This document shows, in pieces, positions 7,539 to 60,838 of a DNA stretch of 64,000 nt. The translations under genes were made by a program, and so were the position numbers. The notes below the pieces were generated by a model, which made no database searches, was not told the DNA's origin, and was given only the letters and a program-made list of their open reading frames with translations. Origin of the DNA: Clostridiales bacterium (GTDB taxonomy: Bacteria; Bacillota; Clostridia; Monoglobales; WRBX01). Position 1 is the stretch's first letter, and every line of letters begins with the position of its first letter. The DNA is taken from positions 72,009-136,008 of the forward strand of contig JAISIR010000001.1 in the NCBI GenBank assembly GCA_031261985.1. Reading direction: 5' to 3'.

Positions 7539-8672
7539 TTACTGTGCTGAGCTTCCGTCGCCACTTGGTGGAGCATCGTTTTTATTGCCAAAGTATTTTT
7601 CTAGCTTACCAAGCCCGCGGGCTGCTTGCCCTTCTTGGCTCTCGGCTATTTTATGCGCCACACGTGCGCTACCTGTTAGCCCTGCAGAAGCTGCCTCGGC
7701 TTGAGTTGTCGCCGCAACTTTCTCTTCGGCTTTAGGTATATTGCTATCGGTCATAAACTCTTTAAAAGTGGTGGTCATGCCTGCCATATCCTGCAAATTA
7801 GTTGGCATAATAATTTTAGTTGCCTTGCCGTCTGCCACTTTAGCCCACGTCTCCATGCTCTTAATAGCCAACGTTCCAGCAGATGGTGCAGATGCGTTTA
7901 TCTTTTTAATACCTTCGGCTTGAGCAGATTGCAATTTAATCATTGCCTCTGCCTCACCTTCGGCGACTAATATATTAGTAAGTTTTTTACCTTCGGCACT
8001 TAAAATTGCTGCCTCACGCTCGGCTTGAGCATTTAATATAGCACTTTCTTTTTTACCTTCGGCGCGTAGGACGGCAGACTTTTTCTCACCCTCGGCACGC
8101 AAGATAGCTTCACGACGTTCGCGCTCGGCTTTCATCTGACGTTCCATTGCATCTTGAATCTCACGTGGTGGAATGATATTTTTAAGCTCTAGGCGGCTAA
8201 TTTTGATACCCCATTCATCGGTGGCTTCATCTAAAGTAGTGCGCAAGCTAGAGTTGATTATATCACGAGAAGTTAAGGTTTCGTCAAGCTCCATCTCACC
8301 GATTAAGTTACGCAAGGTGGTGGCGGTTAACGTCTCGATTGCTGCCATAGGATGGTCAACGCCATAGGTGTAAAGTTTAGGGTCGGTTACCTGGAAATAC
8401 ACAACGGTATCTATGTGCATAGTAACATTGTCCTTAGTTATAACTGCCTGAGGACGAAAATCTATTACTTGCTCTTTAAGCAAGACAACCTTAGCGATGC
8501 GGTCGATAAAAGGCACTTTAAAATGCAAACCGACATCCCAAGTTGTTTTATAGGCACCCAAACGCTCGATAACAAAGGCGTATGCTTGTGGCACCGTTTT
8601 TATATTAGAAATAATAAATAGAATGAATAGGACAATTAGTAAAATAAAAATAATAATTGGTAGCATGTCCAA
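7539..8672 (-). CDS. SPFH/band-7 (stomatin/flotillin-like) membrane protein with long Ala/Glu-rich C-terminal tail
   Basis: N-terminal TM, then an SPFH core (VPQAYAFVIERLGAY.., coiled AEREAAILSAEG repeats). Paired with the upstream NfeD gene. Confidence 0.85.
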   Translation of the reverse strand: MDMLPIIIFILLIVLFILFIISNIKTVPQAYAFVIERLGAYKTTWDVGLHFKVPFIDRIAKVVLLKEQVIDFRPQAVITKDNVTMHIDTVVYFQVTDPKLYTYGVDHPMAAIETLTATTLRNLIGEMELDETLTSRDIINSSLRTTLDEATDEWGIKISRLELKNIIPPREIQDAMERQMKAERERREAILRAEGEKKSAVLRAEGKKESAILNAQAEREAAILSAEGKKLTNILVAEGEAEAMIKLQSAQAEGIKKINASAPSAGTLAIKSMETWAKVADGKATKIIMPTNLQDMAGMTTTFKEFMTDSNIPKAEEKVAATTQAEAASAGLTGSARVAHKIAESQEGQAARGLGKLEKYFGNKNDAPPSGDGSSAQ

Positions 8673-8710
8673 AACCTCCCCAAAATAACTTTTTTAAAAA
8701 ATCGTTTATA

Positions 8711-9190
8711 TTATTCAACATCGTTGTTAATTGGCGTGACTATTAGTTTTATACCTTCTATAGCTATTACTTTTGCTTTATCGCCTTTTTGCAAAGGTTG
8801 GCGTTTTTTGTCGATTTTTAATTTCTTATCATCGTCATCTAGTTTGCATCGCCAAATTTGACCGTTAGCCTTAGCCTCTGCAATATCGTCTTGTACATCT
8901 ATTATGGTAACTATCATACCTAAAAGCCTGTTTGCGTTGGTAGGTATTTTAGGCTTGCGTATAAACTTGCTAACAAATGGGCTAATGGCGATTAGTGCTA
9001 TAATAGATGAAACTATAAATACCGTTAGCTGAATGGCTAGGCTTGCGTTAAATAAAACAGATATCATCGCCAACCCCGCGCCTATGGCAAACCAAATTGT
9101 AATTAAACTTAGCGAGAAAACCTCTAGCAAAATAAAGATAATCATTACTACCAGCCATATAAAGAACATTAAAATTTGTTGCATGTACAC
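8711..9190 (-). CDS. NfeD-family membrane protein
   Basis: Three N-terminal TM spans plus a C-terminal OB-like soluble domain. Classic NfeD-SPFH operon partner. Confidence 0.75.
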   Translation of the reverse strand: MYMQQILMFFIWLVVMIIFILLEVFSLSLITIWFAIGAGLAMISVLFNASLAIQLTVFIVSSIIALIAISPFVSKFIRKPKIPTNANRLLGMIVTIIDVQDDIAEAKANGQIWRCKLDDDDKKLKIDKKRQPLQKGDKAKVIAIEGIKLIVTPINNDVE

Positions 9191-9243
9191 ACCTTCAATG
9201 GTTAAATTTGATGTACTTATTCTTTACAATATATTCTTTACAT

Positions 9244-10752
9244 TTACGATATAGGTTTCATGGTTGGGAACAATAACACATCGCGGATTGAGGGGCTATC
9301 GGTTAACAACATTGCCAAACGGTCGACACCAAAGCCCATGCCGCCTGTTGGTGGCAATCCTATCTCTAGTGCTTCGATAAAGTCCTCGTCCATCATGTTG
9401 GCTTCGTCGTCACCTGCAGCGCGCGCCTTAACCTGCTCTAAAAAACGCTCTTTTTGGTCGATAGGGTCGTTTAGCTCCGAGAATGCGTTGGCGATTTCCC
9501 TCCTGGTGATAAACAGCTCAAAGCGTTCGGTTAAGCGAGGGTCGTCCTTCTTCTTTTTAGCAAGAGGCGATACTTCTATAGGGTAATCGATTACAAAAGT
9601 TGGTTGTAATAGCTCACTTTCTACTTTTTCCTCGAAAATCTCGTTTAACACGCTGCCCCAAGTTGCATTTTTAGGTACTTCTATATGTAACTCTTTAGCG
9701 GCGGCTTGTGCTTGTTCATCGGTAGTGATATTATTAAAATCTACCCCAGAATATTTTTTAACCGCGTCTATCATTGTGATTCGTTGCCAATTAGGAGTAA
9801 GGTCGATTTCTTCGCCCTGGTAAGTAATTTTTAACCCACCACATACCTTGTTTGCAACTGTTGTTATAAGGCTTTCGGTTAAGTCCATCATGCCTTTATA
9901 ATCGGTATATGCTTGGTATAATTCCACCGTGGTGAACTCGGGATTATGCTTAACGCTCATGCCCTCGTTGCGGAAGATTCTGCCTAACTCGTACACGCGC
10001 TCGAACCCACCAACTACAAGACGTTTAAGGTGAAGCTCGGTTGCGATGCGGAGGTACATGTCGATATCTAGCGTATTATGATGCGTTATAAATGGTCTTG
10101 CAGCAGCTCCGCCTGGGATGGTGTTAAGTATAGGCGTCTCGACCTCTAAAAACCCGAGACTATCGAGGAAGTTGCGTGTTTCAGTAATAATTTTGCTGCG
10201 TTTAATAAAAGTTTGTTTAATATCCGGGTTAACGATTAAATCTATATATCTTTTACGATAGCGAATATCAACATCGGTCAGGCCGTGGAACTTCTCGGGC
10301 AATGGCTGAAGTGATTTAGAAAGAATGGTTAGCTCGAAAGTTTTAATAGAAATTTCGCCTTTATGCGTTCTAAAAACCTCGCCATTTATACCTACGATAT
10401 CGCCGATATCGAGCTTTTTAACCTCGGCATATGTATCCTCGCCAACATCGTTTATGCTTATGTAAAGCTGGATTCTGCCACTGCCATCTAATAGGTCACA
10501 AAAGCTTGCTTTACCCATGCCACGTTTGCTCATGATTCTACCAGCTAGGCTTACCTTTTTACCCTCAAAATTGTCAAAATCGTCTATAATAGTTTGAGCG
10601 TGGTCGGTTGCATCAAAGGTTGTGATATCGAATGGATATTTATTGTTCTGTTTTAAATCGTCTAATTTTTGACGCCTTGCTTGTAGAATTTCACTTATAT
10701 TTTGGATATTTTCGGAATTATTTATATTTTCGTTGTGAGTATCGGAACTCAT
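9244..10752 (-). CDS. lysS: Lysine--tRNA ligase (class II)
   Basis: 502 aa with class II motifs ([15 protein letters not shown]). In the conserved greA-lysS arrangement. Confidence 0.95.
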
Positions 10753-23430: not shown

Positions 23431-23578
23431 TACGTTACCACCTTTTGGATTAATTATAATACATAAATATTAAAAGGTCAAGTATTTTAAGACAAAAAAA
23501 TAAGCGGATTGAATCCGTTTTTAAGATATTATTTATATTACAAAATAGTTAAAATATTGTTGCTATTGTTAGTTCGTG

Positions 23579-23607
23579 TTGACTTTTGTCAGTTTTTTTG
23601 ATATAAT
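23579..23607 (+). promoter_or_regulatory. Promoter of small-peptide mRNA, copy 1
   Basis: TTGACT, 17 nt, then TATAAT. Confidence 0.6.
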
Positions 23608-23684
23608 ACCTTTGGTAGTTCAACAAGGGGATATTCAGCTTGTGATGGTTGGCTTCCTTGCTCAACAGCAAGGAGGTGGTGCCG

Positions 23685-23756
23685 ATGAAGAAGTTTATAA
23701 TTGCTTTTGTAATTATACTTATTCTGATGGCGTTCTTTGCTACTCCGGTAGTTTAG
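23685..23756 (+). CDS. 23-aa hydrophobic peptide MKKFIIAFVIILILMAFFATPVV (candidate type I toxin, copy 1)
   Basis: GGAGGTG SD lies 8 nt before the ATG and there is a consensus promoter upstream. A paralogous ORF is conserved at 37713..37784. Missed by the 60-aa-minimum ORF track. Confidence 0.45.
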   Translation: MKKFIIAFVIILILMAFFATPVV

Positions 23757-23759
23757 AGT

Positions 23760-23862
23760 AAAAAAACAACCGTCTTACCCTTGTAAAGTTGACGGTTGTG
23801 ATAATAACACTATAGAAATTTGCAAGGAAGCTAGCCGTTATAATCGGTTTTCCCCTTTTGTT
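23760..23862 (-). ncRNA. Predicted ~100-nt antisense RNA (candidate antitoxin, copy 1)
   Basis: Bounded by minus-strand TTGACA-17-TATAAT (23869..23897) and a hairpin ACAACCGTC/GACGGTTGT followed by T7 on the minus strand only. Ends are inferred, not measured. Confidence 0.4.
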
Positions 23863-23868
23863 ACTAAC

Positions 23869-23897
23869 ATTATACTATATGTTTTATTATTTGTCAA
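23869..23897 (-). promoter_or_regulatory. Convergent antisense promoter, copy 1
   Basis: Minus strand reads TTGACA (23897-92), 17 nt, then TATAAT (23874-69). Confidence 0.6.
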
Positions 23898-23920
23898 TAG
23901 TTTGTTGTATAAATATTTTC

Positions 23921-24145
23921 TTAAACTCTTGGCATATTCATACCTTTTGATAGGTTTTTATTTTGGACCACGCCCTTTGCAGAAGTAGAATTTTTTGCAT
24001 AATTAATCCTCTCTGCCATTGTAGGGTCTAACATTTTATTTTTAGCTGCAAGTGAATCGGTAATTTTGACAGCTAACCCTTTACCTGCGTTTAACGCTCT
24101 TTGGCTTGCATCTATTTTTTGTGCATGTCTTTTTAATACGTTCAT
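23921..24145 (-). CDS. Hypothetical small basic protein (74 aa)
   Basis: ORF lies 30 nt downstream of the 113-aa ORF on the same strand, probably in one transcription unit. No family recognised. Confidence 0.5.
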   Translation of the reverse strand: MNVLKRHAQKIDASQRALNAGKGLAVKITDSLAAKNKMLDPTMAERINYAKNSTSAKGVVQNKNLSKGMNMPRV

Positions 24146-26424: not shown

Positions 26425-26817
26425 ATGAACGCTATACTAAAGACATTATTGGTAATAGGAACTGTTTTGTTTTTAACTTTTATTGTGTACATGGTGCGTA
26501 AAAAAAAGTTAGAGCTTAAATATACCATTATTTGGCTGATAGCTTCTATTGTTTTGGTTATATTTGCGGTTTTCGATTCGCTATCTATTGCGCTATCTGC
26601 CTTATTAAATATAGCCGAACCAGTTAATGCTATATTTTTAGCAATATTTTTGTTCCTAATTTTAATGCAATTTATGCTGACTATTTACATATCTAAAAGC
26701 AACGATAGGATTCGTGTTCTTACCCAAGCTTTAGCATTAAAAGAGCTAGACTCAAAGTCCGAGGCGGGCGAGCCAAGTGAGTTAAGCGAGATTAATGAGA
26801 ATGAGAAACAGCTATAA
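26425..26817 (+). CDS. DUF2304-family small membrane protein
   Basis: 130 aa with TM, then RKKKLELKYTIIWL, then TMs, typical of DUF2304. The 3' end overlaps the convergent prmC by 26 nt. Confidence 0.6.
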   Translation: MNAILKTLLVIGTVLFLTFIVYMVRKKKLELKYTIIWLIASIVLVIFAVFDSLSIALSALLNIAEPVNAIFLAIFLFLILMQFMLTIYISKSNDRIRVLTQALALKELDSKSEAGEPSELSEINENEKQL

Positions 26818-27628
26818 CTCTTGATATATCATTAATATCTTTATTGGTGCAAATTACGTTATAGTCGTTAGACGAAAACAATTCGGTTACGCTATTTAGT
26901 TGGTCATAGCCTATCTCTAACACTATTTTTCCCTTAGGTTTAAGCCAGCTGCTGCCACGCTCGGCTATTAAACGATAGAAGTCTAGCCCATCGGCACCGC
27001 CATTTAACGCTAGATGTGGCTCGTAATTTTTCACCGTTGGGGCAAGCGTGTCTATTATATGCGTTGGGATATAAGGTGGATTAGAAACTATAATATCGTA
27101 ATCTTTATCGGGAATAAAATCAAAAACGTCGCCATGCAAAAAGTTGACAACAACGTTATTTGCATCGGCGTTTTTTTGTGCCATTTTTATTGCGTCGGTG
27201 TTTATGTCTAGCGCATCGACCTGCAGAAACTTACCATAATGTGCTAAACAGATGGCTATCACGCCGCTTCCTGTGCCTAGCTCTAAAACATCGGTGCCAG
27301 ATGAGCAAAAATTAAGCGTTGTTTCGACCAAAACCTCGGTATCGGGGCGAGGGATAAGCGTGGATTTATCTACATTAAACTTTAACCCCATAAACTCTTT
27401 TTCGCCAATAATATATGCAACTGGCTCATCGTCTGCACGACGCATAATAAGGCTGCTATAATGCTGATGTTGTTCGTTTGTTATATTGTACAAGGGATTC
27501 GTCAGCAAAAACAGTCTATCTTTGCCTAAAACAAATGACAAAATAACTTGTGCGTCTAACACGCAAGTCGAAATTTTAAACCTATTTAGTTTTTCGATAC
27601 CTTCGGTCAGTGCTTGTTTGATATTCAT
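26792..27628 (-). CDS. prmC: Release-factor glutamine N5-methyltransferase PrmC/HemK
   Basis: SAM-binding LELGTGSG and catalytic NPPY (VSNPPYIP); 278 aa. Confidence 0.85.
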   Translation of the reverse strand: MNIKQALTEGIEKLNRFKISTCVLDAQVILSFVLGKDRLFLLTNPLYNITNEQHQHYSSLIMRRADDEPVAYIIGEKEFMGLKFNVDKSTLIPRPDTEVLVETTLNFCSSGTDVLELGTGSGVIAICLAHYGKFLQVDALDINTDAIKMAQKNADANNVVVNFLHGDVFDFIPDKDYDIIVSNPPYIPTHIIDTLAPTVKNYEPHLALNGGADGLDFYRLIAERGSSWLKPKGKIVLEIGYDQLNSVTELFSSNDYNVICTNKDINDISRVIAVSHSH

Positions 27629-27646: not shown

Positions 27647-28324
27647 TTAAAATTCCCGCTTTTTATAATATCCTACAGATACAAAATATGATATGCAAAT
27701 TGTAGCAAAAAACGCAAATATGCTTGCTAATAAAGTATATAATGCCGAATACTCAAACGAACCTGCCCATTCGATAAACGCGACGATGCCTTCTACCCCC
27801 CACATAGTACCTATAATCGAAATGCTTGCCGATACAATAAATAATGGTATAAAACTTAGCGTGCGTGATTTTGTATATTGCATTTTAAAATGCACAGGTA
27901 ATTGAACACATAATAATACAAACATTATTAGGCTACTAAATATTGCAATCAAAATTTTTTCGCCCAGGTTTATTGGTTGTTGCATAAATATCGATACAAA
28001 TATGGCTATAAAAAGTGAGAATGCCGAGCCAATTAATAGCATTATAACTGTAAATAAATACCTGCCGCCAACTAATTCTTCGCGCGAGATTCCTAGCGTG
28101 CAATATAGTGCGTCCATATTAGTTTTTTCGCCTATTGCAAAAGGATACGATGCGTAAAAATACGCTAAAAACATGCCGACAAATATAGCCGTCGAACCGC
28201 CAGATGCCGAGCTTGATAATAGCATGATTATTGCAAAGAATATCCAGTTTTTGGGTGCAAAGTATGTTTTGATGGTTCTAAAATCTAACATTGCTATGTT
28301 CCATAATTTACTCATTGTTTGCAC
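27647..28324 (-). CDS. ABC-2-type exporter permease
   Basis: 225 aa with six hydrophobic spans. Overlaps the upstream ATPase gene by 17 nt, suggesting translational coupling. Confidence 0.6.
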   Translation of the reverse strand: MQTMSKLWNIAMLDFRTIKTYFAPKNWIFFAIIMLLSSSASGGSTAIFVGMFLAYFYASYPFAIGEKTNMDALYCTLGISREELVGGRYLFTVIMLLIGSAFSLFIAIFVSIFMQQPINLGEKILIAIFSSLIMFVLLCVQLPVHFKMQYTKSRTLSFIPLFIVSASISIIGTMWGVEGIVAFIEWAGSFEYSALYTLLASIFAFFATICISYFVSVGYYKKREF

Positions 28325-29183
28325 GCTCCTTATCTCTACTCATAAATATTATAATCTCGTCTATGCTAATAGTTTTGGGTGCATATTTGCTGAATTCGGC
28401 TTTAGCTCTACTCTCAATCATCGCCTCGAACCCTTTTCCTTGTCGACGATACCCTATTGCTTTATTACGAATATTATCGTCTGGCTTATCGCCGGATATG
28501 CGCAAATATTTCTCGACTAAACCGTCTTTTGTGCCGCTATACACAATGCTACCGTTCATTATAAACACAATATAATCGGCAATTTTTTCTAAATCCGATG
28601 TTATATGGGTAGAGAATAACACGCCCTTTTGCCCATCGTCGGTAAAATCTTGCAGGATATTACAAACTTCATCGCGCGCGACAGGGTCTAGCCCGCTTGT
28701 CGGCTCGTCTAAAATAAGTAATTTGGCATTGTGCGAAAGAGCTACCGCTAACTGAATTTTAACCTTCATTCCACGTGATAAATCTTTAATTTTTTTGGTA
28801 GTATCTAGGTCGAAATCTTTTATATGCTTATTAAAAGCATCATCGCTCCAGGAAGAATAAAATGGTTTAAGCGAGCGTGCAACATCTGCAACCGTCCAAT
28901 CTTCGGGGTAAAAAGGAGTGTCCATTACCACGCCAATATCCGATGCTTTGTTGCCACATAAATTAATCTCGCCGCGCTTGGCATTAACAATGCCCAAGAT
29001 AGCCTTTATCGTGGTAGTTTTACCCGCACCATTAGGACCGATAAACCCGCAAATATTACCTTTTTTCACATCAAAACTAATATCTTTTAGTACAAAATTA
29101 GGGTAACGCTTGCGCAGACCTTTAACGTATAAAACATTATCGTCATTTGGCTGATTCTTCTTGACACTTGTTGATATTGCCAT
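28308..29183 (-). CDS. ABC transporter ATP-binding protein
   Basis: Walker A GPNGAGKTT, signature LSRGMK and Walker B LLILDEPTSGLD. Confidence 0.9.
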   Translation of the reverse strand: MAISTSVKKNQPNDDNVLYVKGLRKRYPNFVLKDISFDVKKGNICGFIGPNGAGKTTTIKAILGIVNAKRGEINLCGNKASDIGVVMDTPFYPEDWTVADVARSLKPFYSSWSDDAFNKHIKDFDLDTTKKIKDLSRGMKVKIQLAVALSHNAKLLILDEPTSGLDPVARDEVCNILQDFTDDGQKGVLFSTHITSDLEKIADYIVFIMNGSIVYSGTKDGLVEKYLRISGDKPDDNIRNKAIGYRRQGKGFEAMIESRAKAEFSKYAPKTISIDEIIIFMSRDKERANNE

Positions 29184-29302
29184 AAAATTACGCTCCTTTT
29201 AGGTGATTTATTCCTGCATTTAATCGCACAAAATATCTATAATTTGTAAAACTATTTTTTTGATATATCGCCAAACTTGGCGATTTTAATATACTCGTTT
29301 AA

Positions 29303-29331
29303 ATTATAATCTATTTTATAAATAAAGTCAA
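29303..29331 (-). promoter_or_regulatory. Promoter inside 73-nt unit A (drives ABC ATPase/permease)
   Basis: Minus strand reads TTGACT, 17 nt, then TATAAT. Confidence 0.6.
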
Positions 29332-29337
29332 TAGTGC

Positions 29338-29370
29338 AAAAAAAGGTGCCGATTAAGCAATCGACACCTT
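29338..29370 (-). terminator. Intrinsic terminator in 73-nt unit A (ends the 558-aa gene)
   Basis: Minus strand reads AAGGTGTCGATT-GCTT-AATCGGCACCTT followed by T7. Confidence 0.7.
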
Positions 29371-29379
29371 TTAATAAAC

Positions 29380-29440
29380 ACGCTTCGACGCGAGTGAATC
29401 GTTCATAAAAATGTGAAATATTTTTGCAGTTTTTTGTTGA
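29380..29440 (+). repeat. Truncated/degenerate copy of the two-hairpin repeat
   Basis: ACGCTTCGACGCGAGTGAATCG..ATATTTTTGCAG retains hairpin 1 and the left arm of hairpin 2 only. Confidence 0.5.
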
Positions 29441-29512
29441 TTTTTTTATATTTATTTATACAATAAGTTTTAGGCTTTGTCAATATAATGTTTTAATAGG
29501 CAAGCTCATTCA

Positions 29513-31189
29513 TTAATACCACCCGCTGCTTTGAGGGTATAATTCTCTGGCAATTTTTTGCAAGATTTCTAACTTTTTATCATTGAATTTATTTTGTTCT
29601 TCATCATTTTTGTTGTAAAGCTTGGCAAACGTATTAAATCGCTCTTTAAATTCGTTGTCACAATAAATATCATAATGAATTAAATATTTAAATTCGGATA
29701 AAATTTCTTTTAGTTTTTCTTCATCTAGATTTAACGTATAAAAATAAACAAAGCATTCCTCAACAAATTCACAGTTTTGATTTACTTCTGTGATAACTTT
29801 ATCTTTATTATATTCCCGTACGTCGAATTCATCAAATAAAAACAGAAGATATTTAACCGCTTTTTCTTTAAAGTCCCCATCATTTAAAGCCTTTTCTAAT
29901 TTGTCTTTGAGGTTACTATTGGCTATTATATTATCAATAATATTTTTATAAAAAGTGGTTGTGTTTCCAATTATTGAAGCGTCAGTGGTATAGTATCCAA
30001 AATAATATGCATATATAATGAGGAATATATTAGTTAGATTAATATCTATATAATTGTTATTATATAATGAGCGATTATTTAAATCACGTTCAAATTGATT
30101 GTACCCATAAATAGATTTAATTAGATTTTTATCATTATTTTTTATGCACTCGATAATATAATAAAAATAGTTAAATTCTTTAATTTCGTATTTTGTTTTT
30201 GGTAATATTGGCATAAATGTGTGTGGTTTATAATTAACTTTACTGTAGTCTTTTTCTTCGTTAATCCAAAGATAATGAGATTCGTCTAAAACATGTTTTA
30301 ATAGATCATTTTTTTGCTTTTGATTAATCAATTTGTTTTGTGTTATTGAATTGTGTAAATCATAAGAAATATACGCTGTAGAAGCCGTTAATTTTTTTCT
30401 TCTATCAAGATTCTCAAAAATTGCTTCTAGTGCTGTATGCAATATGTGGCCGTTAAATTCGTAATCTAAATTGACAAATTCTATTAAATCAATAGTTTTA
30501 CTGATTATATCATGGTCTTCGTTTAAGTAAATTTTTTTATAATTAGATATTAAATATAATTGTTCAACTAAAAATAGCGCTTCTGATATTTCCTTTGGTT
30601 CTTTACTCTCTATAGCATCGTTTAGCATATCAACAAAGAATTCGCCAGTCTCCAAGCTATGGTTTTTAGACCTTTGTATTGTCTTTTTTATCATATAATC
30701 TCTAATTTCACCTTTGATTTTTTCTTCTGCTCCTAAAATTTCTAGCGTATCTTTTATTAGGTAAATATTGGCTATCACTAATAAAAAGAATATGTAAGCC
30801 ATTGTGTTAAAGTATTGAAACTCTAGGCAAAACCAAGAGGCTAAAACTAAAACAAGCATGACGCTTAACATTATCGCTCGTCTAAAAGGTACTATGTTTT
30901 TATATGAATAGACATATTTTGCAACGGACATTCCATAAAACTTTTTATCGTTAATACTAGAAACTAACGCCAATACACTAGGTGCTAAAACCGCAATTGT
31001 AGACATTACTTGAAAGAGCGTACCATAGATATTAAGCTTATCTTGAATATCGTAGTTGGTATAAAACTTGGCAGGCAAAGTTATAATGCTTTTGTCTACA
31101 CAAAATGGTATAATCGTAATTACAATTAAAAGTATAAAAATACTCCATTGCATAATGCTATAAATTTTTAATTTGCTGATTTTTGTCAT
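29513..31189 (-). CDS. Orphan membrane protein: four N-terminal TM helices plus ~400-aa soluble K/N/Y-rich domain
   Basis: 558-aa uninterrupted ORF, visibly more AT-rich than both flanks. Flanked by a duplicated 73-nt terminator+promoter unit. No family recognised. Confidence 0.7.
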   Translation of the reverse strand: MTKISKLKIYSIMQWSIFILLIVITIIPFCVDKSIITLPAKFYTNYDIQDKLNIYGTLFQVMSTIAVLAPSVLALVSSINDKKFYGMSVAKYVYSYKNIVPFRRAIMLSVMLVLVLASWFCLEFQYFNTMAYIFFLLVIANIYLIKDTLEILGAEEKIKGEIRDYMIKKTIQRSKNHSLETGEFFVDMLNDAIESKEPKEISEALFLVEQLYLISNYKKIYLNEDHDIISKTIDLIEFVNLDYEFNGHILHTALEAIFENLDRRKKLTASTAYISYDLHNSITQNKLINQKQKNDLLKHVLDESHYLWINEEKDYSKVNYKPHTFMPILPKTKYEIKEFNYFYYIIECIKNNDKNLIKSIYGYNQFERDLNNRSLYNNNYIDINLTNIFLIIYAYYFGYYTTDASIIGNTTTFYKNIIDNIIANSNLKDKLEKALNDGDFKEKAVKYLLFLFDEFDVREYNKDKVITEVNQNCEFVEECFVYFYTLNLDEEKLKEILSEFKYLIHYDIYCDNEFKERFNTFAKLYNKNDEEQNKFNDKKLEILQKIARELYPQSSGWY

Positions 31190-31256
31190 TTAATTACCTC
31201 TTTTTTAATGTCGTTGCTAAAATTCTACAATTTTTAGCATAATATACCTTTTTTAA

Positions 31257-31285
31257 ATTATAATCTATTTAATAAATAAAGTCAA
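31257..31285 (-). promoter_or_regulatory. Promoter inside 73-nt unit B (drives the 558-aa orphan gene)
   Basis: Minus strand reads TTGACT, 17 nt, then TATAAT; identical to unit A apart from one spacer base. Confidence 0.6.
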
Positions 31286-31291
31286 TAGTGC

Positions 31292-31324
31292 AAAAAAAGG
31301 TGCCGATTAAGCAATCGACACCTT
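31292..31324 (-). terminator. Intrinsic terminator in 73-nt unit B (ends the RR-HK operon)
   Basis: Hairpin identical to unit A, followed by T7. Confidence 0.7.
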
Positions 31325-31363: not shown

Positions 31364-32929
31364 TTAAAACTTTATGACCACCTTAAACAAGTCGGCGTCT
31401 ACCTTTATTTGCATCTCGCCGCCGCACGCCTCGGTATAACTTTGCGCAATTGCCAAGCCTAAGCCATTTCCACCGTCGGTGCGAGAGCTATCGCCGCGCA
31501 CAAAACGCTCGGTAATTTCCTTCTCGTCAAAATCCATATCATAGCCGGCTATATTTTTAAACTCGATTGTTTTACCGTTAACCACTATATAGCAATTAGT
31601 ACCCTTTAGGCTATATTTTGCCATGTTTGTAATTAAGTTCTCGAACACGCGAGCCATAAGCTTACCGTCTGCACGAATAGTCTCGTCTGCCACCTTAACT
31701 CTAAACACCATATCGGTATCAACCTCGGCTAAGGTTTGGTTAATCAGCTCGGCAAGCGATAGCTCTTCCATATGCAAATCGACATTCCCGCTCGTCGCCT
31801 TGCTAATCTCGAACAACCCTTCGGTCAGCTCTTTTAGCTTAAGGCTTTTGCTATTGATAATTTGAACCTTCTCGTTATCGGGCAGTTCTTGCAAAAGCAG
31901 GCTAGAGTAGTTGATTATAGCAGTTAGAGGTGTTTTAAGGTCGTGCGATACATTAGTAACCAGCTCGGATTTCATACGCTCGGCTTTAACTTTATCGGCG
32001 GTTGCTACATCTAATCTATCTAGATTAAACACCTTGCGCACAGTTTTATAGCACCAGCGATATATCGCATAGCAAAAACTTGCTTTTAAGAACTGATGAT
32101 TCTTAATTTTACGAACTATAGATAAATATAATCCTAGCCATAATAGATATATTAACTCGATGCAGGCAAACATGGACAATTGAGTTTGAGCCGCGTAATA
32201 TGGTGCTACAAAGGCAGCTCCCGCTAACGCTGCGCACGCCAGCCATAACAATAGGTTGAATTCCGTCCATAGCTTATCGAATTTTGGATTTCCGCTGGCT
32301 AAATAGCTTAGGAATATGATTAGAATAAGCCATGCAATTGTGTACCAAGCTATAGTATTTATACGCTGCGAGAATATATCAAACTTACCCTGCCACTCGT
32401 CATTTTTTTCTGCCCATACCTGGTTATCATAGCCCGATGCAAATACAATATCTTTCTCGATAAAGTGCGAATTATAATTATAAGTTTTAGACATATCTAA
32501 GGCTAAAACTCCGTTATAATCGAGCTCGGAATTCTTTAACACCTCGCCTGTCGCCTTATTTTCGAAGTAATAGTAAATGCCAAACCTATTAGCATTTGAA
32601 TCTAGACGTTTTTTTAAGCCTTCCAAACGCTGCTCGGAGGTAATAGTCTCTTCACCTCTGCCACTATTATAATAATCTTGCCGCGCATATTCTTCTAGAT
32701 TAATCTCACGGTTGGCAATATCGTTCATCTGAGCATTTATACTATCGAGGTAATGGTAATATTCCTCATAGTTTCGCCCAGTAATGCTAAATCCAGCATA
32801 ATCATCGCTATCGGCGATACGCAATAAAACTAACCCCTGCGACATAATTTGCCACACAAGAACCATGGTTAGTACAATTAAACTAGCCTTTAAAATTTTA
32901 GAGTTTCTCCAACTTGTAGCCAATTCCAT
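31364..32929 (-). CDS. Sensor histidine kinase
   Basis: H-box VSHDLKTPLT and the G-box region GGNGLGLAIA. N-terminal TM, extracytoplasmic region and further TMs. Overlaps the RR gene by 32 nt. Confidence 0.85.
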   Translation of the reverse strand: MELATSWRNSKILKASLIVLTMVLVWQIMSQGLVLLRIADSDDYAGFSITGRNYEEYYHYLDSINAQMNDIANREINLEEYARQDYYNSGRGEETITSEQRLEGLKKRLDSNANRFGIYYYFENKATGEVLKNSELDYNGVLALDMSKTYNYNSHFIEKDIVFASGYDNQVWAEKNDEWQGKFDIFSQRINTIAWYTIAWLILIIFLSYLASGNPKFDKLWTEFNLLLWLACAALAGAAFVAPYYAAQTQLSMFACIELIYLLWLGLYLSIVRKIKNHQFLKASFCYAIYRWCYKTVRKVFNLDRLDVATADKVKAERMKSELVTNVSHDLKTPLTAIINYSSLLLQELPDNEKVQIINSKSLKLKELTEGLFEISKATSGNVDLHMEELSLAELINQTLAEVDTDMVFRVKVADETIRADGKLMARVFENLITNMAKYSLKGTNCYIVVNGKTIEFKNIAGYDMDFDEKEITERFVRGDSSRTDGGNGLGLAIAQSYTEACGGEMQIKVDADLFKVVIKF

Positions 32930-33587
32930 ACACCACCTTTAAAAGTTTAGGGTTTTTAGGGTCAATCTCTATTTTCTCGCGAATCCGCCTGATATGAACC
33001 GCAATTGTGTTGTCATTAACAAACACATCCTCGTTCCACACCGCGCGATAAATCTCTTCTGCCGAAAAAATTCGATTAGGGTGCTTGCAAAAAAGTTCCA
33101 AAATGCGATACTCTAGGTTAGTAAGCTTAACCTGCTCTCCATCGACGGTTACTTTTTTATTAAGCCCGTCAAAGGCAAGTGAGCCGATAATAATCTCGCC
33201 CATTGCAGGTGTTTGGTTAAAAACAATGCTACGACGCAACGCCGATTTAACCCTTGCTAAAAGCTCGGTAGGAGAGAATGGCTTGGTTATGTAATCGTCG
33301 GCACCGCTTAATAATCCATAAACCTTGTCGCTTTCTTCACTTTTTGCAGTTAAAAGAATAATGGGAATATTAGATGTTTTGCGAATCCGCTCCATAGTTT
33401 TAATGCCGTCTAGCTTGGGCATCATAATATCCATAAGCACTAGGTTAATGGTGTCCCGCTGCAAAATATCTAGCGCGGTAATGCCATCGGGTGCTATGCG
33501 CACTTCATACCCATCGTTGTTTAGATAAATGGCTGTGGAATCGGCTATCGCTTTATCATCATCTACTACCAAGATTTTATTTGTCAC
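32898..33587 (-). CDS. OmpR/PhoB-family response regulator
   Basis: Receiver domain (ILVVDDD, LVLMDIMMP, LTAK) plus a winged-helix C-terminus (LTNLEYRILELF..VYGIGYKL). Confidence 0.9.
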   Translation of the reverse strand: MTNKILVVDDDKAIADSTAIYLNNDGYEVRIAPDGITALDILQRDTINLVLMDIMMPKLDGIKTMERIRKTSNIPIILLTAKSEESDKVYGLLSGADDYITKPFSPTELLARVKSALRRSIVFNQTPAMGEIIIGSLAFDGLNKKVTVDGEQVKLTNLEYRILELFCKHPNRIFSAEEIYRAVWNEDVFVNDNTIAVHIRRIREKIEIDPKNPKLLKVVYGIGYKLEKL

Positions 33588-33713
33588 CCTAAAATTGCCC
33601 CCTTTGTCTACCCTTTTATTGCTAAGTGTATGATATCATTTAAATGTTACAAAAATGTTTACTTAAATATTAAGAATTTATTAAGATTGTTTTTGGAACC
33701 GCTAATTAACCAT

Positions 33714-35816: not shown

Positions 35817-37475
35817 ATGAATATAAAACATTGCAATTGGCACAGTCATAAAAAATGTTGTAAATGTTGTGTGTGTTGCGCAGGCGGAGGTTCGGGTAGT
35901 GTGGGTCCGACAGGACCGACAGGACCGATGGGACCGACAGGGGCTACAGGCGCGATGGGGCCTAAAGGTGACACAGGTGCGACGGGCGAAACGGGTATAC
36001 AAGGTGTAGAAGGCGAGCAGGGGGTGCAAGGAATCGCTGGTAGCACGGGGCCGACAGGCGAGCGTGGCGAAAAGGGCGACACAGGGGCGAGTGGTGCGAC
36101 AGGGGCTACAGGCGAGCAAGGACTTCAAGGGATTCAGGGCATTCAGGGGATTCAAGGGGTAAAAGGGGACACAGGTGCGTCGGGCGAACGTGGGGAAACA
36201 GGAGCGACGGGAGCAACTGGGCTTCAGGGGATTCAAGGCGAGCAAGGTGTGGCAGGCGCGACGGGTGCTACAGGCGAGCGTGGAGAGAAAGGTGACACAG
36301 GCGACACAGGTCCGCAGGGATTACAAGGAGCCCAGGGTGAGACAGGTCCGCAAGGTATTCAAGGCGTACCGGGCGCGGCGGGCGAAGTTGGCTCGTTAAA
36401 AGGTGCATATGACACTTTAGAAGATTTACAGGCAGCACACCCGACAGGGAATGCTGGCGATGCGTATTATATTCAACCAGACCTATACATATGGGACACG
36501 ACGACGAACTCGTGGCTTAACATTGGCGAAATTGCAGGGCCGCAGGGTGTGACAGGTCCGCAGGGGGTACAAGGCCCGCAAGGTGATACAGGGGCGACGG
36601 GACCTAAAGGCGACACAGGTGCAACTGGGGCGACTGGCAGCACTGGAGCAGCGGGATCGACAGGGGCAACAGGTGCGACGGGGTTGCAGGGCGTTCAGGG
36701 GATTCAAGGTGACACAGGAGCGACAGGCGAGCGTGGCGAGAAGGGGGATACCGGTGACACAGGTGCGCAAGGGGTTCAGGGGGAGCAAGGGATTCAAGGT
36801 ATACCAGGTGCGACGGGGGCGACTGGGGGCATTGGAGCAACAGGTGCGACGGGCGAGAAAGGTGACACAGGCGACACAGGTCCGCAGGGCATTCAGGGTG
36901 TGCAAGGAGTGCAGGGGGTTCAAGGCGTAGTAGGTCCGACGGGACCGACAGGAGCGGCTGGCGAGGCAGGGCCAATGGGACCGACGGGGGATACAGGACC
37001 GATGGGGTCGACAGGTCCGACGGGGACTTGTGATTGTTCGGCTTTAGAAGAGAGAATAACGAATCTGGAAACAGAAATAAGGACAATAGTATCGGAAATT
37101 ACGCCGTCGACAGTGCGGACGGCATTAACTGAGGAGCCGACACTTAGCGGGATAGGGACTAGCGTTATAAACACAGGCGACACCTTTAATTTTTGGGGGA
37201 CGAATGAACTGACTCAGGCGGCTTCGCTTAATAATGGGCAGACATACTATATTGCGACGTCTGACCAATTCCCTGAACTAAAGAACTACCAAGGCTCGCC
37301 GACTATTACCACCATGTGGATAGAGAAGCCCGACGGAACGACTCAGACGGTGCCTGTGTATTTTGATTCGAATGGGATATATTTTACGCCGTCGTCTTCG
37401 ATTAATAATTTGCCAATAGGCACATCGTTTAAGTTTACGCAGGCGTTGATTTTGGATAGCGGGGATATAAGTTAG
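35817..37475 (+). CDS. Collagen-like triple-helix repeat protein (BclA/exosporium-type) with Cys-rich N-terminus and globular C-terminal domain
   Basis: Two long G-X-T/G-X-Q triplet arrays are separated by a ~50-aa non-collagen insert. N-terminus is [13 protein letters not shown]-terminal heptad segment [16 protein letters not shown] precedes a ~130-aa beta-rich domain. Confidence 0.85.
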
Positions 37476-37605
37476 GAAAAATAATTGAGAATTGAGAATG
37501 CAGAATGCAGAAATAATGTAATAAATTTTCACTAACGCTCAAATTTACAAACATGCAAAAAATATTACAAAATAGTTAAATTATTGTTACTTTTGTTGGT
37601 TTATG

Positions 37606-37634
37606 TTGATTTTTATCGAAATATTAGATATAAT
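37606..37634 (+). promoter_or_regulatory. Promoter of small-peptide mRNA, copy 2
   Basis: TTGATT, 17 nt, then TATAAT. Confidence 0.6.
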
Positions 37635-37712
37635 ACTCTCGGTAGTATAATGAAGGGGATATTCAGCTTGTGACGGATTGCTTCCTTGCTCAACAGCAGG
37701 GAGGTGGTGCCG

Positions 37713-37784
37713 ATGAAGAAATTTATGATTGCTTTTGTAATTATACTTATTCTCGCGGCAATCTTTGCTACTCCTGTAATTTAG
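37713..37784 (+). CDS. 23-aa hydrophobic peptide MKKFMIAFVIILILAAIFATPVI (candidate type I toxin, copy 2)
   Basis: Paralog of 23685..23756 with the same SD context (GGGAGGTG), same length and only conservative substitutions. Confidence 0.45.
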   Translation: MKKFMIAFVIILILAAIFATPVI

Positions 37785-37789
37785 AGTAA

Positions 37790-37886
37790 CAAAAACAACC
37801 GTCGCATCTTTGGAAAGGGACGACGGTTGATATATTCACAATAATCCAAGGAAGCTAACCGAAACATTCGGTCTTCCCCTTTTGTT
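37790..37886 (-). ncRNA. Predicted ~100-nt antisense RNA (candidate antitoxin, copy 2)
   Basis: Minus-strand TTGACA-17-TATAAT (37893..37921), and a hairpin CAACCGTCG/CGACGGTTG followed by a T-run on the minus strand. Ends are inferred. Confidence 0.4.
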
Positions 37887-37892
37887 ACTACC

Positions 37893-37921
37893 ATTATACT
37901 ACATAATTAATCATTTGTCAA
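37893..37921 (-). promoter_or_regulatory. Convergent antisense promoter, copy 2
   Basis: Minus strand reads TTGACA (37921-16), 17 nt, then TATAAT (37898-93). Confidence 0.6.
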
Positions 37922-37927
37922 TATTTT

Positions 37928-39022
37928 TTATCTAGGCGCGACCATATAGAGCATTTTAGCAGTCGCAAGCCTCATTATATGTTCTAGCACTTCAGGATTA
38001 TTCGTGTTTTCGATTGCAGCTACAATTTCTGGCGCAATCTTTACCTCTGGTTTATTGTTTGGCTTATCCTCGCGTGCCTTTTCTAAAACAGCGGCGACAC
38101 TTTTTCGCGTAACGCGTTTTTTGCTTTCAAGAATCGGCTTAATTTCCTCTAGTTTTTTAGGACTAATCCAATACTTATTGCTATTATCTTTAGCGTAAGC
38201 GTCTTTTAATGCCTCAACACTTTTTATTCCCGCTTTATACAAATGGAATTCGGTAATATCACCAAGTTTTAAAGTAGTAAGAGGGGTCTTCTTTTGCTGA
38301 ATCGCCTCGACGTAAGCCTCGATATCTTTTAAGCCGTCAGAATTAAATATCTCGCTTAATATTTCAGGCTTATTTTGATATGTTTTTACTAAATCTTTTT
38401 CTTTAAATATTCCGTTATAATTCAAGTAGTAGATATTACCAGAGCCTAGCACATTGACGTCTAAAAAACCTTTAGGTGTCATGTCATTTTTGTACATACA
38501 TTCCACTATTTTTGTAATCAGACTTTTTTCTACTTTTGCTTTACGCAACTTTGATATAATACTAGATGTTTTGGCTGCATCTTTAAAATCGTTCATATTC
38601 TTAATACCTATAGAATGCAACGCAGCAACAACATCATCAGCGCGAACATCATTTTTGAAGTAAGTTCTTAGACGAAGGTCGCGAGGTTGATATTGTGATA
38701 ACTCTGGAAGTTCTTCTAACACGTTAAAAGCACCGTGAATTCTGCGAGCAATACGATTTGCATCATAATCTTTAAAAATCTCTTTATGCTCGCTGGCTTT
38801 TAAGAATTCTTCTATTTCTTCTTCACACTTTGGTTTACCGTCGTTAAGACCATAACGCTCTTGCAATGGCAGGCGATATTCAATATCTAGCTCAGATATT
38901 TTGTCTTTTATAAACTGGATCACATCAAAATTGTAATCGGTTAAAGACACACCACCTTCTTTAACTAAATGTTTGAATAAATTTTCGTAATTTTTCTCGT
39001 ACATAAGTTTTAATCTCCCCAT
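37928..39022 (-). CDS. Hypothetical protein (364 aa) with a sigma-region-4-like RYGLNDGKP segment
   Basis: Long ORF. The ATG at 39004 (MYEKNY), preceded by GGGGAGA, is an equally good start. Served by promoter TTGACT-17-TATAAT at 39046..39074. Confidence 0.6.
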   Translation of the reverse strand: MGRLKLMYEKNYENLFKHLVKEGGVSLTDYNFDVIQFIKDKISELDIEYRLPLQERYGLNDGKPKCEEEIEEFLKASEHKEIFKDYDANRIARRIHGAFNVLEELPELSQYQPRDLRLRTYFKNDVRADDVVAALHSIGIKNMNDFKDAAKTSSIISKLRKAKVEKSLITKIVECMYKNDMTPKGFLDVNVLGSGNIYYLNYNGIFKEKDLVKTYQNKPEILSEIFNSDGLKDIEAYVEAIQQKKTPLTTLKLGDITEFHLYKAGIKSVEALKDAYAKDNSNKYWISPKKLEEIKPILESKKRVTRKSVAAVLEKAREDKPNNKPEVKIAPEIVAAIENTNNPEVLEHIMRLATAKMLYMVAPR

Positions 39023-41583: not shown

Positions 41584-41633
41584 ATTTTGAGTTGTAATAT
41601 GCAAAAAATTTTATTATTAATATTAACAGGCTA

Positions 41634-41710
41634 ACGCGCGAATGAATCGCACCTTAGCTTCTAAAGTTATTTGGATATTTTCGGCGACAAGCTGCCGAAA
41701 ATTTGTTTTT
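41634..41710 (+). repeat. Two-hairpin intergenic repeat, copy R1
   Basis: ..GCGAATGAATCGC..GCTTCTAAAGTTATTTGGAT-ATTTTCGGC-GACAAGCT-GCCGAAAAT-TTGTTTTT. Lies downstream of gene 39181..41583. Confidence 0.8.
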
Positions 41711-41735
41711 ATGATAATTATTTTTGCCAAAAGTA

Positions 41736-42706: not shown

Positions 42707-42796
42707 CGCTAATTGTGGCTAAATATTCACTTTCTCATAAACGTATGATGGCAACGTAGCTCGAGATTTCGCATCGAATATTTGTATTGTATAAAT

Positions 42797-42875
42797 ACAC
42801 TTCGGCGAGTGAATCCGCCGAAGCTTCTAAAGGAAATATGATATTTTCGGCGACAAGCTGCCAAAAATCTGTTTC
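42797..42875 (+). repeat. Two-hairpin intergenic repeat, copy R2
   Basis: CTTCGGCG-AGTGAATC-CGCCGAAG, linker GCTTCTAAAG.., then ATTTTCGGC-GACAAGCT-GCCAAAAAT. Lies between convergent genes. Confidence 0.8.
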
Positions 42876-42937
42876 TATAATAAATTTCTTAAAATCTAAG
42901 TTCTTAATTGAATTTAGTTTTTTTGTTTAGCTTGGCT

Positions 42938-49678: not shown

Positions 49679-49720
49679 AAAAACGCTTCGGCTCGAAGAA
49701 ATCGGCTAAAGCGTTTTTAT
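49679..49720 (+). terminator. Terminator after the YgjV-like gene 49122..49646
   Basis: AAAAACGCTT...AAGCGTTTTT gives a 10-bp outer stem followed by a T-run. Confidence 0.55.
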
Positions 49721-49729
49721 TATATAAAT

Positions 49730-49918
49730 ACGCTGCGCGCGAATAAATCGCGCTTCGCTCGTCGCAACTGCTTCACGCGGCTAGTTTTTTGCAAAAATCG
49801 CAAAAACGTCGCTTTTGTTCCGCGTTGCTCCTCTTATCCCACAAAACGGAACTCGCGTTTTGTAGGAGCCCTTTTGTTATTTGGATATTTTTGCGGACAA
49901 GCTCGCAAAAATCTGTTT
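49730..49918 (+). repeat. Two-hairpin repeat, copy R3a, carrying a ~110-nt insertion in its linker
   Basis: The 5' half ACGCTGCGCGCGAATAAATCGCGCTTCGCT and the 3' half TTATTTGGAT-ATTTTTGCG-GACAAGCT-CGCAAAAAT are separated by extra structured sequence. Confidence 0.7.
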
Positions 49919-49931
49919 GCATTATACACAC

Positions 49932-50010
49932 ACGCTGCGCGCGAATAAATCGCGCTTCGCTTCTAAAGTAATTTGGATATTTTTGCAGACAAGCTCGCAA
50001 AAATCTGTTT
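49932..50010 (+). repeat. Two-hairpin repeat, copy R3b
   Basis: ACGCTGCGCGCGAATAAATCGCGCTTCGCTTCTAAAGTAATTTGGAT-ATTTTTGCA-GACAAGCT-CGCAAAAAT-CTGTTT. Confidence 0.8.
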
Positions 50011-50043
50011 CTATATATACATATTTAACTATTAACCAAACGC

Positions 50044-58099: not shown

Positions 58100-58154
58100 G
58101 ATATAATAATATCATTAATAATAAAAATGTCAAGTGTTTTTTTGAATGAAAACA

Positions 58155-58233
58155 ACGCAATGACGAAATGAATCCGTCATTGCTGCTAAAGATAATATGA
58201 TATTTTCGGCGACAAGCTGCCGAAAATTTATTT
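58155..58233 (+). repeat. Two-hairpin repeat, copy R4
   Basis: CAATGACG-AAATGAATC-CGTCATTG, linker GCTGCTAAAG.., then ATTTTCGGC-GACAAGCT-GCCGAAAAT. Lies between minus-strand genes 58260..59936 and 56591..58099. Confidence 0.8.
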
Positions 58234-58259
58234 GAATATTTTTATTACTTAATTACAAT

Positions 58260-60693: not shown

Positions 60694-60722
60694 TTGCATT
60701 TATTTTGTTGTTATTATATAAT
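60694..60722 (+). promoter_or_regulatory. Promoter of the cvpA leader
   Basis: TTGCAT, 17 nt, then TATAAT. The predicted TSS coincides with the first base of repeat copy R5. Confidence 0.6.
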
Positions 60723-60728
60723 ATAAAT

Positions 60729-60808
60729 ACGCTTCGGCGGAATGAATCCGCCTGCGCTTCTAAAGTTATTCGGATATTTTCGGCGACAAGCTGCCGAAAA
60801 TCTGTTTT
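60729..60808 (+). repeat. Two-hairpin repeat, copy R5 (forms the cvpA 5' leader)
   Basis: ACGCTTCGGCGGAATGAATCCGCCTGCGCTTCTAAAGTTATTCGGAT-ATTTTCGGC-GACAAGCT-GCCGAAAAT-CTGTTTTAT. Confidence 0.8.
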
Positions 60809-60838
60809 ATACTATTTATATCAAGGTGGTGCAAAAAA

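Follow-up and report, generated by a model that had tools for sequence, protein, structure and literature searches.

Introduction

Putative mobile promoters are stretches of non-coding DNA, longer than 50 nt and nearly identical, that lie upstream of unrelated genes of one genome without an insertion sequence (IS) (Matus-Garcia, Nijveen and van Passel, 2012; PMC3575422). Recombinase-less circularizable structures hold their cargo between direct repeats and have no recombinase inside (Palmieri et al., 2013), and work on a 46-bp model showed that, in E. coli, direct repeats of down to that length recombine without a dedicated recombinase, yielding a deletion and a circle (PMC5426353). Genomic islets and elements bounded by duplicated attachment (att) sites consist of AT-rich foreign DNA at an intergenic site, with direct repeats at both ends. 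Here we describe a locus that shares features with each of these. It lies in a 64-kb stretch of DNA (the window, to whose numbering all coordinates refer) from a single metagenome-assembled genome (MAG) of a Clostridiales bacterium (GCA_031261985.1, contig JAISIR010000001.1), and consists of one 558-codon open reading frame (ORF), hereafter the orphan, enclosed by two nearly identical copies of a 73-nt unit predicted to contain a terminator and a promoter. The best reading, to which we give a somewhat better than even chance and which is not proven, is that the orphan is an inserted foreign gene with a duplicated terminator-promoter, situated between a regulator-kinase operon and a separately transcribed ABC-2 transporter operon.

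A duplicated 73-nt unit encloses the orphan

The repeat occupies positions 29298-29370 (copy 1) and 31252-31324 (copy 2), an offset of 1954 nt, and the copies agree at 72 of 73 positions. Within the 64-kb window, over which uniqueness was assessed, these were the only two copies at three or fewer mismatches; none of 100 shuffled sequences gave a match, and a sensitive blastn search with the unit against the window yielded no further match longer than 17 nt. An initial annotation, made from the sequence alone, had claimed a duplicated unit of this length and identity, and the repeat search and shuffles bear it out. The possibility raised there that the unit is a repeat common throughout the genome is ruled out for these 64 kb. 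The sole mismatch (T at 29317, A at 31271, plus strand) falls in the spacer between the -35 and -10 hexamers. Past the edges of the unit, ungapped identity drops to background (41/118 positions on one side, 29/110 on the other), in keeping with the earlier statement that the sequence outside the units is unrelated. The background is exceeded only by an 8-nt TAATATAC match that is offset by one base and lies just past the promoter end (29288-29295 and 31241-31248). Given this shifted match, the segment originally duplicated may have been ~85 nt long, with a 3-4-nt scar.

The minus strand of each copy reads as a 12-bp stem closed by a 4-nt loop (AAGGTGTCGATT-GCTT-AATCGGCACCTT), a run of seven T residues and then TTGACT-17-TATAAT, whose hexamers score 11/12 against the consensus. 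In copy 2 the hairpin spans 31324-31297, the T-run 31296-31290, the -35 box (TTGACT) 31285-31280 and the -10 box (TATAAT) 31262-31257; the corresponding positions in copy 1 are 29370-29343, 29342-29336, 29331-29326 and 29308-29303. When the two copies are folded as RNA, the hairpin is the dominant structure in each (z = -4.3 and -4.8). With its G+C-rich hairpin, T-run and hexamers at 17-nt spacing, the unit is predicted to be an intrinsic terminator followed by a sigma-70-type promoter, as the initial annotation had read it. Since it begins at the base of the hairpin and ends 5 nt beyond the -10 box, approximately at the expected transcription start (~31250 for copy 2 and ~29296 for copy 1), the unit amounts to a complete terminator and promoter with nothing extra. 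Copy 2 is located 63-135 nt upstream of the ATG of the orphan, and copy 1 115-187 nt upstream of the ATG of an ABC transporter ATPase gene. The duplication is sharp-edged and appears recent; identity at 72 of 73 positions implies either a recent event or continuing gene conversion.

The hairpin pattern of the unit had no match in GTDB representative genomes or IMG/VR, and the unit as a whole was not found in the collections of genomes, viruses and metagenomes searched. The 29-nt promoter core occurs exactly in two Joint Genome Institute (JGI) contigs (L005, 2178-2206; L006, 1989-2017) from an unrelated, very AT-rich organism that are otherwise dissimilar. The spacer consists of A and T only, and independent convergence on the consensus promoter, or chance, most likely accounts for the match.

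The orphan and its relatives

The orphan (29513-31189, minus strand, 558 aa) is a compositional outlier. Its GC content of 26.8% is the lowest among the 47 ORFs of the window that were compared (39.7 +/- 4.1% in the other 46; z = -3.1), and its GC content at third codon positions (GC3) is 24.7%. The flanking genes are of ordinary composition, and what the initial annotation had judged by eye, namely that the ORF is more AT-rich than its neighbors, is thus confirmed by computation. Comparative searches covered GTDB representative genomes, IMG/VR, metagenome contigs, phage and plasmid collections, Logan unitigs and 5.8 billion proteins. The orphan had no match in Pfam, NCBIfam, PADLOC or PHROG, and in a word-indexed search of the 5.8 billion proteins its sole near match was itself, in an NCBI entry for a hypothetical protein on a contig of 160,160 bp. 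No similarity was found to the other 558-aa ORF of the window (58260-59936), and paralogy between the two was dismissed. Composition and the lack of a near homolog support the view that the orphan is foreign.

An exhaustive HMMER search recovered 76 remote relatives, ~15-30% identical and mostly 800-890 aa in length, nearly all of them singletons from metagenomes; at the sensitivity used, the family was not found in GTDB representatives, IMG/VR, or the phage and plasmid collections. The orphan is colinear with the first ~560-620 residues of the 800-890-aa relatives and then ends, and it lacks the C-terminal third that is present in almost all long homologs. AlphaFold gave confident models for the orphan and for a full-length relative (predicted local distance difference test, pLDDT, of 84 and 85, respectively). 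Both predict four N-terminal membrane helices followed by an all-alpha solenoid; in the model of the relative, a long helix and a C-terminal alpha/beta module come next. Because the end of the orphan falls inside the long helix that opens this module, the protein appears to be cut mid-domain and not at a natural boundary. Its final codons (PQSSGWY) sit in a GC-richer patch (~29500-29540). Foldseek returned no meaningful match for the orphan model. Taken together, alignments and models describe the orphan as a predicted C-terminally cut member of a rare, uncharacterized family of membrane-anchored alpha-solenoid proteins; being cut, this copy may be inactive.

For the full-length relatives, the top Foldseek matches were weak and recurrent, and were to proteins of the HK97 fold (encapsulin 9e5e and 7odw, and the Bxb1 and HFTV1 capsids), with ~240-285 aligned columns, probabilities of 0.84-1.0, E values of 0.01-0.16 and template modeling (TM) scores to the target of 0.2-0.4. 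They presumably fall on the C-terminal alpha/beta module (P0127 model, residues ~545-806), which is the part missing from the orphan of the window.

Gene neighborhoods could be read for three relatives. In one locus (L016, relative at 8001-10514) the relative directly follows Avs3a/Avs3b and a DRT4 reverse transcriptase. In another (L014) it follows smpB and neighbors a gene for a PDC-S09-like nucleotidyltransferase, and within a few genes there is a restriction-modification pair. The neighborhood in L007 was uninformative. Defense genes near two of the three relatives read support the view of a patchy family that occurs in variable or defense neighborhoods. Occurring alongside Avs3, DRT4 and other defense genes, the family, with its ~76 remote members, is a candidate for phage-defense screening.

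Between the stop codon of the orphan and copy 1 lies a 142-nt 3' flank (29371-29512), whose ORF-side edge is overlapped by the GC-richer patch mentioned above. The flank contains a promoter-like TTGACA-17-TATAAA on the minus strand (~29491-29463), which is 77% identical over 40 nt to a promoter region at 23870-23909. The site has the look of a decayed promoter; if active, it would give rise to a ~115-nt transcript ending at the copy 1 terminator. The initial annotation had also placed a truncated copy of a two-hairpin intergenic repeat at 29380-29440. This resemblance proved weak: a profile hidden Markov model (HMM) of the repeat family had no match at 29376-29440, even at E <= 10, and blastn gave only three marginal matches of that segment to family copies, in the right register, with E values of 0.06-0.15.

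The main rival to an insertion draws in part on this flank and on the shape of the unit. It is conceivable that the orphan, whatever its origin, already lay between the two operons and that the unit was later copied across, whether through ectopic gene conversion or in a small duplicative transfer, and took the place of older regulatory DNA. The two copies would then be a pair of putative mobile promoters. The decayed promoter-like site and the trace of a host repeat suggest an older, reworked intergenic region, and the edges of the unit coincide with its functional edges, as expected if selection had acted on a regulatory module. Furthermore, the two downstream genes are unrelated, and similar upstream segments before non-homologous genes are common, with more than 4000 families, mostly pairs, at a mean identity of 92% (PMC3575422). 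However, this explanation calls for two events, acquisition and then copying, where one does, and neither a third copy nor a donor locus is present in the window. In addition, direct repeats in the same orientation that exactly enclose a compositional outlier are what integration predicts. We regard later copying as unlikely, although it deserves serious weight.

A patchwork 3' flank and a sole enclosed gene truncated mid-domain would also fit a remnant of a larger island or prophage-like element with a 73-bp att site, from which the integrase and most of the cargo were deleted to leave attL, the truncated gene and attR. Direct repeats of such size are typical of att duplications, and the relatives of the gene lie in island-like, defense-rich regions. 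Nevertheless, no recombinase gene or fragment occurs between the repeats or within ~10 kb on each side, and no recombinase domain was detected between 19.5 and 41.6 kb, where ORFs of 100 aa or longer were scanned. Moreover, just 1.95 kb would be left of the element, and the limits of its att site would need to be precisely those of a terminator and promoter. An origin by such decay therefore seems distinctly improbable to us.

The flanking operons

All genes of the locus are on the minus strand. The first gene of the upstream operon encodes an OmpR/VanR-like response regulator (32898-33587; Pfam Response_reg and Trans_reg_C, with an NCBIfam VanR-like match below cutoff). It is followed by a 521-aa histidine kinase (31364-32929; HisKA and HATPase_c), whose TAA stop codon lies 39 nt before copy 2. 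Beyond the orphan and copy 1 come a PmtA-like ATP-binding cassette (ABC) transporter ATPase (28308-29183; Pfam ABC_tran, and NCBIfam PmtA at 1e-72, below cutoff) and a 225-aa ABC-2 family permease (27647-28324; ABC2_membrane_5), which overlaps the stop of the ATPase gene; the next gene, for the PrmC methyltransferase (26792-27628), is an unrelated neighbor. ORF calls and Pfam thus agree with the initial annotation on the order regulator, kinase, 558-codon ORF, ABC ATPase and permease. Both the orphan and the ABC ATPase gene have good ribosome-binding sites, that of the orphan being a Shine-Dalgarno sequence of AAGAGG before the ATG. An Rfam scan of the window found only two tRNAs, and nothing at the locus.

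The initial annotation went further and held that the orphan splits a two-component system from its cognate ABC exporter. Our comparisons do not support this. The four closest relatives of the kinase are 35-50% identical over 56-91% of its length, and one of the four adjoins an ABC transporter: in L004, regulator, kinase, ABC ATPase and permease are contiguous with no gene between them, but the ATPase is only 34% identical to that of the window and the permease belongs to another family. Two others (L008 and L017) have no transporter beside the kinase relative, and L009 has two unrelated genes there. The nearest relatives of the permease (33-36% identity; L010-L013) all reside in GntR-ATPase-permease modules without a two-component system, and the permease itself belongs to ABC2_membrane_5 and not to the BceB/FtsX type. 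Near-consensus promoters are unusual among activator-dependent promoters, and the promoter of the unit, being near-consensus, would need no activator. Finally, the unit contains no match to the direct repeat GTAAACATTTTTGTAACATTT, a candidate regulator box ahead of the regulator gene, which is weak negative evidence. Insertion between two adjacent operons is consequently a safer description than insertion into a cognate module.

Two further sequence features were noted in these operons. A direct repeat GTAAACATTTT/TGTAACATTT at 33642-33662 (minus strand), just upstream of the response-regulator gene and unique in the window, is plausibly an autoregulatory box. A perfect 7-4-7 palindrome (ATCGCCAAACTTGGCGAT) at 29267-29284, in the 5' leader of the ABC ATPase gene and just downstream of copy 1, is a candidate operator or leader hairpin; the GntR repressor found in homologous ABC modules elsewhere is missing at the ABC genes beside it.

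Whether the orphan belongs to a native three-part locus also turns on these neighborhoods. In that case it would be an accessory membrane protein, co-expressed with the ABC genes via the same promoter, and its AT-richness would reflect fast evolution. Identical promoters imply identical regulation, the orphan is membrane-anchored like its neighbors, and its ORF is intact, with a good Shine-Dalgarno sequence and a confidently modeled fold. On the other hand, a relative of the orphan was present in none of the four kinase-relative loci (L004, L008, L009 and L017) and none of the four permease-relative loci (L010-L013). Furthermore, its relatives occur in unrelated contexts, and a native accessory protein would have to do without the C-terminal third of almost all long homologs. 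We consider a native origin very unlikely.

The proposed insertion and its possible routes

Insertion by duplication of the unit or recombination within it, as the initial annotation had proposed, keeps the support of a foreign-looking gene, a truncated and patchily distributed family and a sharp-edged repeat, and loses that of a cognate two-component and transporter flank. The contiguous order of kinase and ABC ATPase in L004 was counted in its favor. According to this reading, the horizontally acquired 5' two-thirds of an alpha-solenoid-family gene would have entered the intergenic region, and the native 73-bp terminator and promoter would have ended up on both sides of the insert. The kinase operon would then stop at the copy 2 hairpin, the orphan would be driven by the near-consensus promoter of copy 2 and its transcription stopped at the copy 1 hairpin, and the ABC genes would be driven by the copy 1 promoter, unchanged from the state before insertion, the net product being three insulated transcription units. 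The most economical route would be single-crossover integration, within the unit, of a circular DNA bearing one copy. An identical outcome would be reached if a long staggered break were filled in, and tandem duplication of the unit followed by insertion is a further candidate. Since direct repeats of 46 bp recombine in E. coli (PMC5426353), loss of the cassette at low frequency, and possibly its regain, would be expected.

If the insertion reading is true, the locus would be a clean natural example of the uptake of a foreign gene amid a regulated locus with its neighbors left undisturbed. Duplication of the terminator and promoter would give the newcomer immediate strong expression, and the transporter would keep its original promoter. 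The locus opens no long-standing question.

The sequence on both sides of the repeats could be checked against reads. Exact look-ups of the orphan, the ATPase and the kinase returned only Logan unitigs of run SRR14710920, which reproduce both variants of the unit and all four junction flanks. One unitig (L002) ends at 29347, another (L001) covers 29341-31301 and a third (L003) starts at ~31295. Such ends are as expected for a shared node of 53 nt with two entries and two exits in a k=31 graph, and both variants and all flanks are therefore real.

Several points weigh against an insertion. Across the shared 53 nt, the k=31 graph does not tell which flank on one side belongs with which on the other, and it fits either an insertion or an empty site plus a 1954-bp circle; the inserted arrangement is carried by the 160-kb MAG contig, which is the sole support for that phasing. 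No empty site or close relative was found in the collections searched, where the best homologs of the kinase are only 35-49% identical, so that the insertion is read from one genome. There is no recombinase, transposase or inverted repeat at the insert. A circular donor that already bore the 73-bp unit of the host needs an explanation, for instance that it had earlier been excised from the genome of a sister strain. The 558-codon ORF is intact and has a good ribosome-binding site, and it might just as well be a resident gene that evolves fast. Some of the cassette may come from the host, as hinted by the faint resemblance of its 3' flank to an intergenic repeat of host type.

The phasing problem leads to two further possibilities. 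In the first, the contig is mis-phased, and the true state is kinase-unit-ABC together with a separate 1954-bp circle or another orphan-bearing locus with one unit. The unitigs stop exactly at the shared 53 nt, and the graph is equally compatible with this state. However, it is the inserted arrangement that the 160-kb contig carries, and the T and A variants of the unit each go with a flank of their own. Moreover, an assembler using k-mers or reads longer than 73 bp, which as a general expectation is usual for such assemblies, would resolve the unit unambiguously. Mis-phasing is, in our judgment, the least probable of the explanations considered here. In the second, the 1954-bp period would be a recombinase-independent cassette in which the unit doubles as recombination site and as expression and insulation signals. 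Such a cassette would be self-contained, would alternate between an integrated state and a free circle plus intact kinase-unit-ABC, and could enter any genome that bears the unit; it would amount to an integron-like principle that works with no integrase. The read graph fits both states, and we give this idea only a slim chance.

Other repeats and features of the window

The two-hairpin intergenic repeats of the window are ~115 nt long and lie in the same orientation at 41611-41720, 42775-42889, 49917-50025, 58132-58248 and 60708-60820, with partial copies at 49713-49759 and 49876-49922. They occur at convergent, tandem and divergent gene junctions, score E values of 1e-28 to 1e-33 with nhmmer, and have no Rfam match. 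A segment of ~400 nt is duplicated 14 kb apart with 87% identity (23535-23930 and 37562-37957), the two copies enclosing the whole locus. In each, a TTGACT...TATAAT promoter and a Shine-Dalgarno sequence accompany a hydrophobic ORF of 23 codons (MKKFIIAFVIILILMAFFATPVV at 23685-23756; MKKFMIAFVIILILAAIFATPVI at 37713-37784) and a terminator hairpin, and the pair may encode small membrane peptides or type I toxin-like genes. Five sites (5097, 11332, 24588, 35691 and 60633) bear the motif TGTTAAATTTGTGTTAAAT, in which TGTTAAAT is directly repeated and which is a candidate binding site for a regulator; two of the sites are upstream of plus-strand genes, one (24740) for an AMP-binding enzyme and the other (35817) for a collagen-like protein. 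The latter is a Gly-X-Y repeat protein (35817-37475; Pfam Collagen, 3e-52), encoded by a stretch of 56-65% GC in a genome of 39% GC.

Comparison with known systems

Several known kinds of element resemble the locus in part. IS elements, miniature inverted-repeat transposable elements (MITEs) and transposons, which are marked by terminal inverted repeats, a short target duplication and a transposase, were rejected since the flanking repeats are direct and not inverted and the sole gene has no match in Pfam, NCBIfam or PADLOC. Integron gene cassettes are likewise one-gene units bounded by a repeated hairpin-forming site, but they are promoterless, whereas the cassette described here carries its own promoter. 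Furthermore, no GTTRRRY was found on either strand in either unit or within 20 nt of it, the plain 12-bp stem with a T-run is not an attC site with R and L boxes, and no integron integrase was detected among the ORFs scanned around the locus. BceRS-BceAB-type modules also have an OmpR-type regulator and a kinase beside an ABC exporter on the same strand; in contrast, the 225-aa ABC2_membrane_5 permease found here is not a BceB/FtsX protein with a large extracellular loop. With the adjacency kept in one of four kinase relatives and the permease relatives linked to GntR, assignment to the Bce type was rejected.

Closer likenesses are found among repeat-bounded elements. In contrast to islets and integrative elements, the locus has no integrase, measures ~1.95 kb and holds a single truncated gene; direct repeats are present, but no site-specific recombinase was detected among the ORFs scanned, and it was not classed as a recognizable integrative element. 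As in recombinase-less circularizable structures, the cargo sits between direct repeats with no recombinase inside; if the two repeats recombined, a 1954-bp circle would be freed and the empty site re-formed around the single remaining copy. The repeats of the present locus, however, are a terminator and promoter and not IS or gene fragments, its cargo is a truncated gene and not a resistance gene, and it is known from sequence alone.

The likeness to putative mobile promoters can be stated in the terms used to define them (PMC3575422). An identity of at least 80% over at least 50 nt within one genome is exceeded by the 72 of 73 positions found here, and the genes downstream of the two copies are not paralogs, the orphan and the ABC ATPase having no similarity and differing in Pfam content. 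Relative to the interval of -150 to -50 from the start codon, copy 2 (-63 to -135) lies fully inside, and copy 1 (-115 to -187) has 36 nt inside. Unlike mobile promoters, the two copies are adjacent, each brings with it a complete upstream terminator, and the one gene between them is foreign in composition. The locus combines two known kinds of arrangement, a small islet of foreign DNA between direct repeats and a duplicated promoter in front of unrelated genes.

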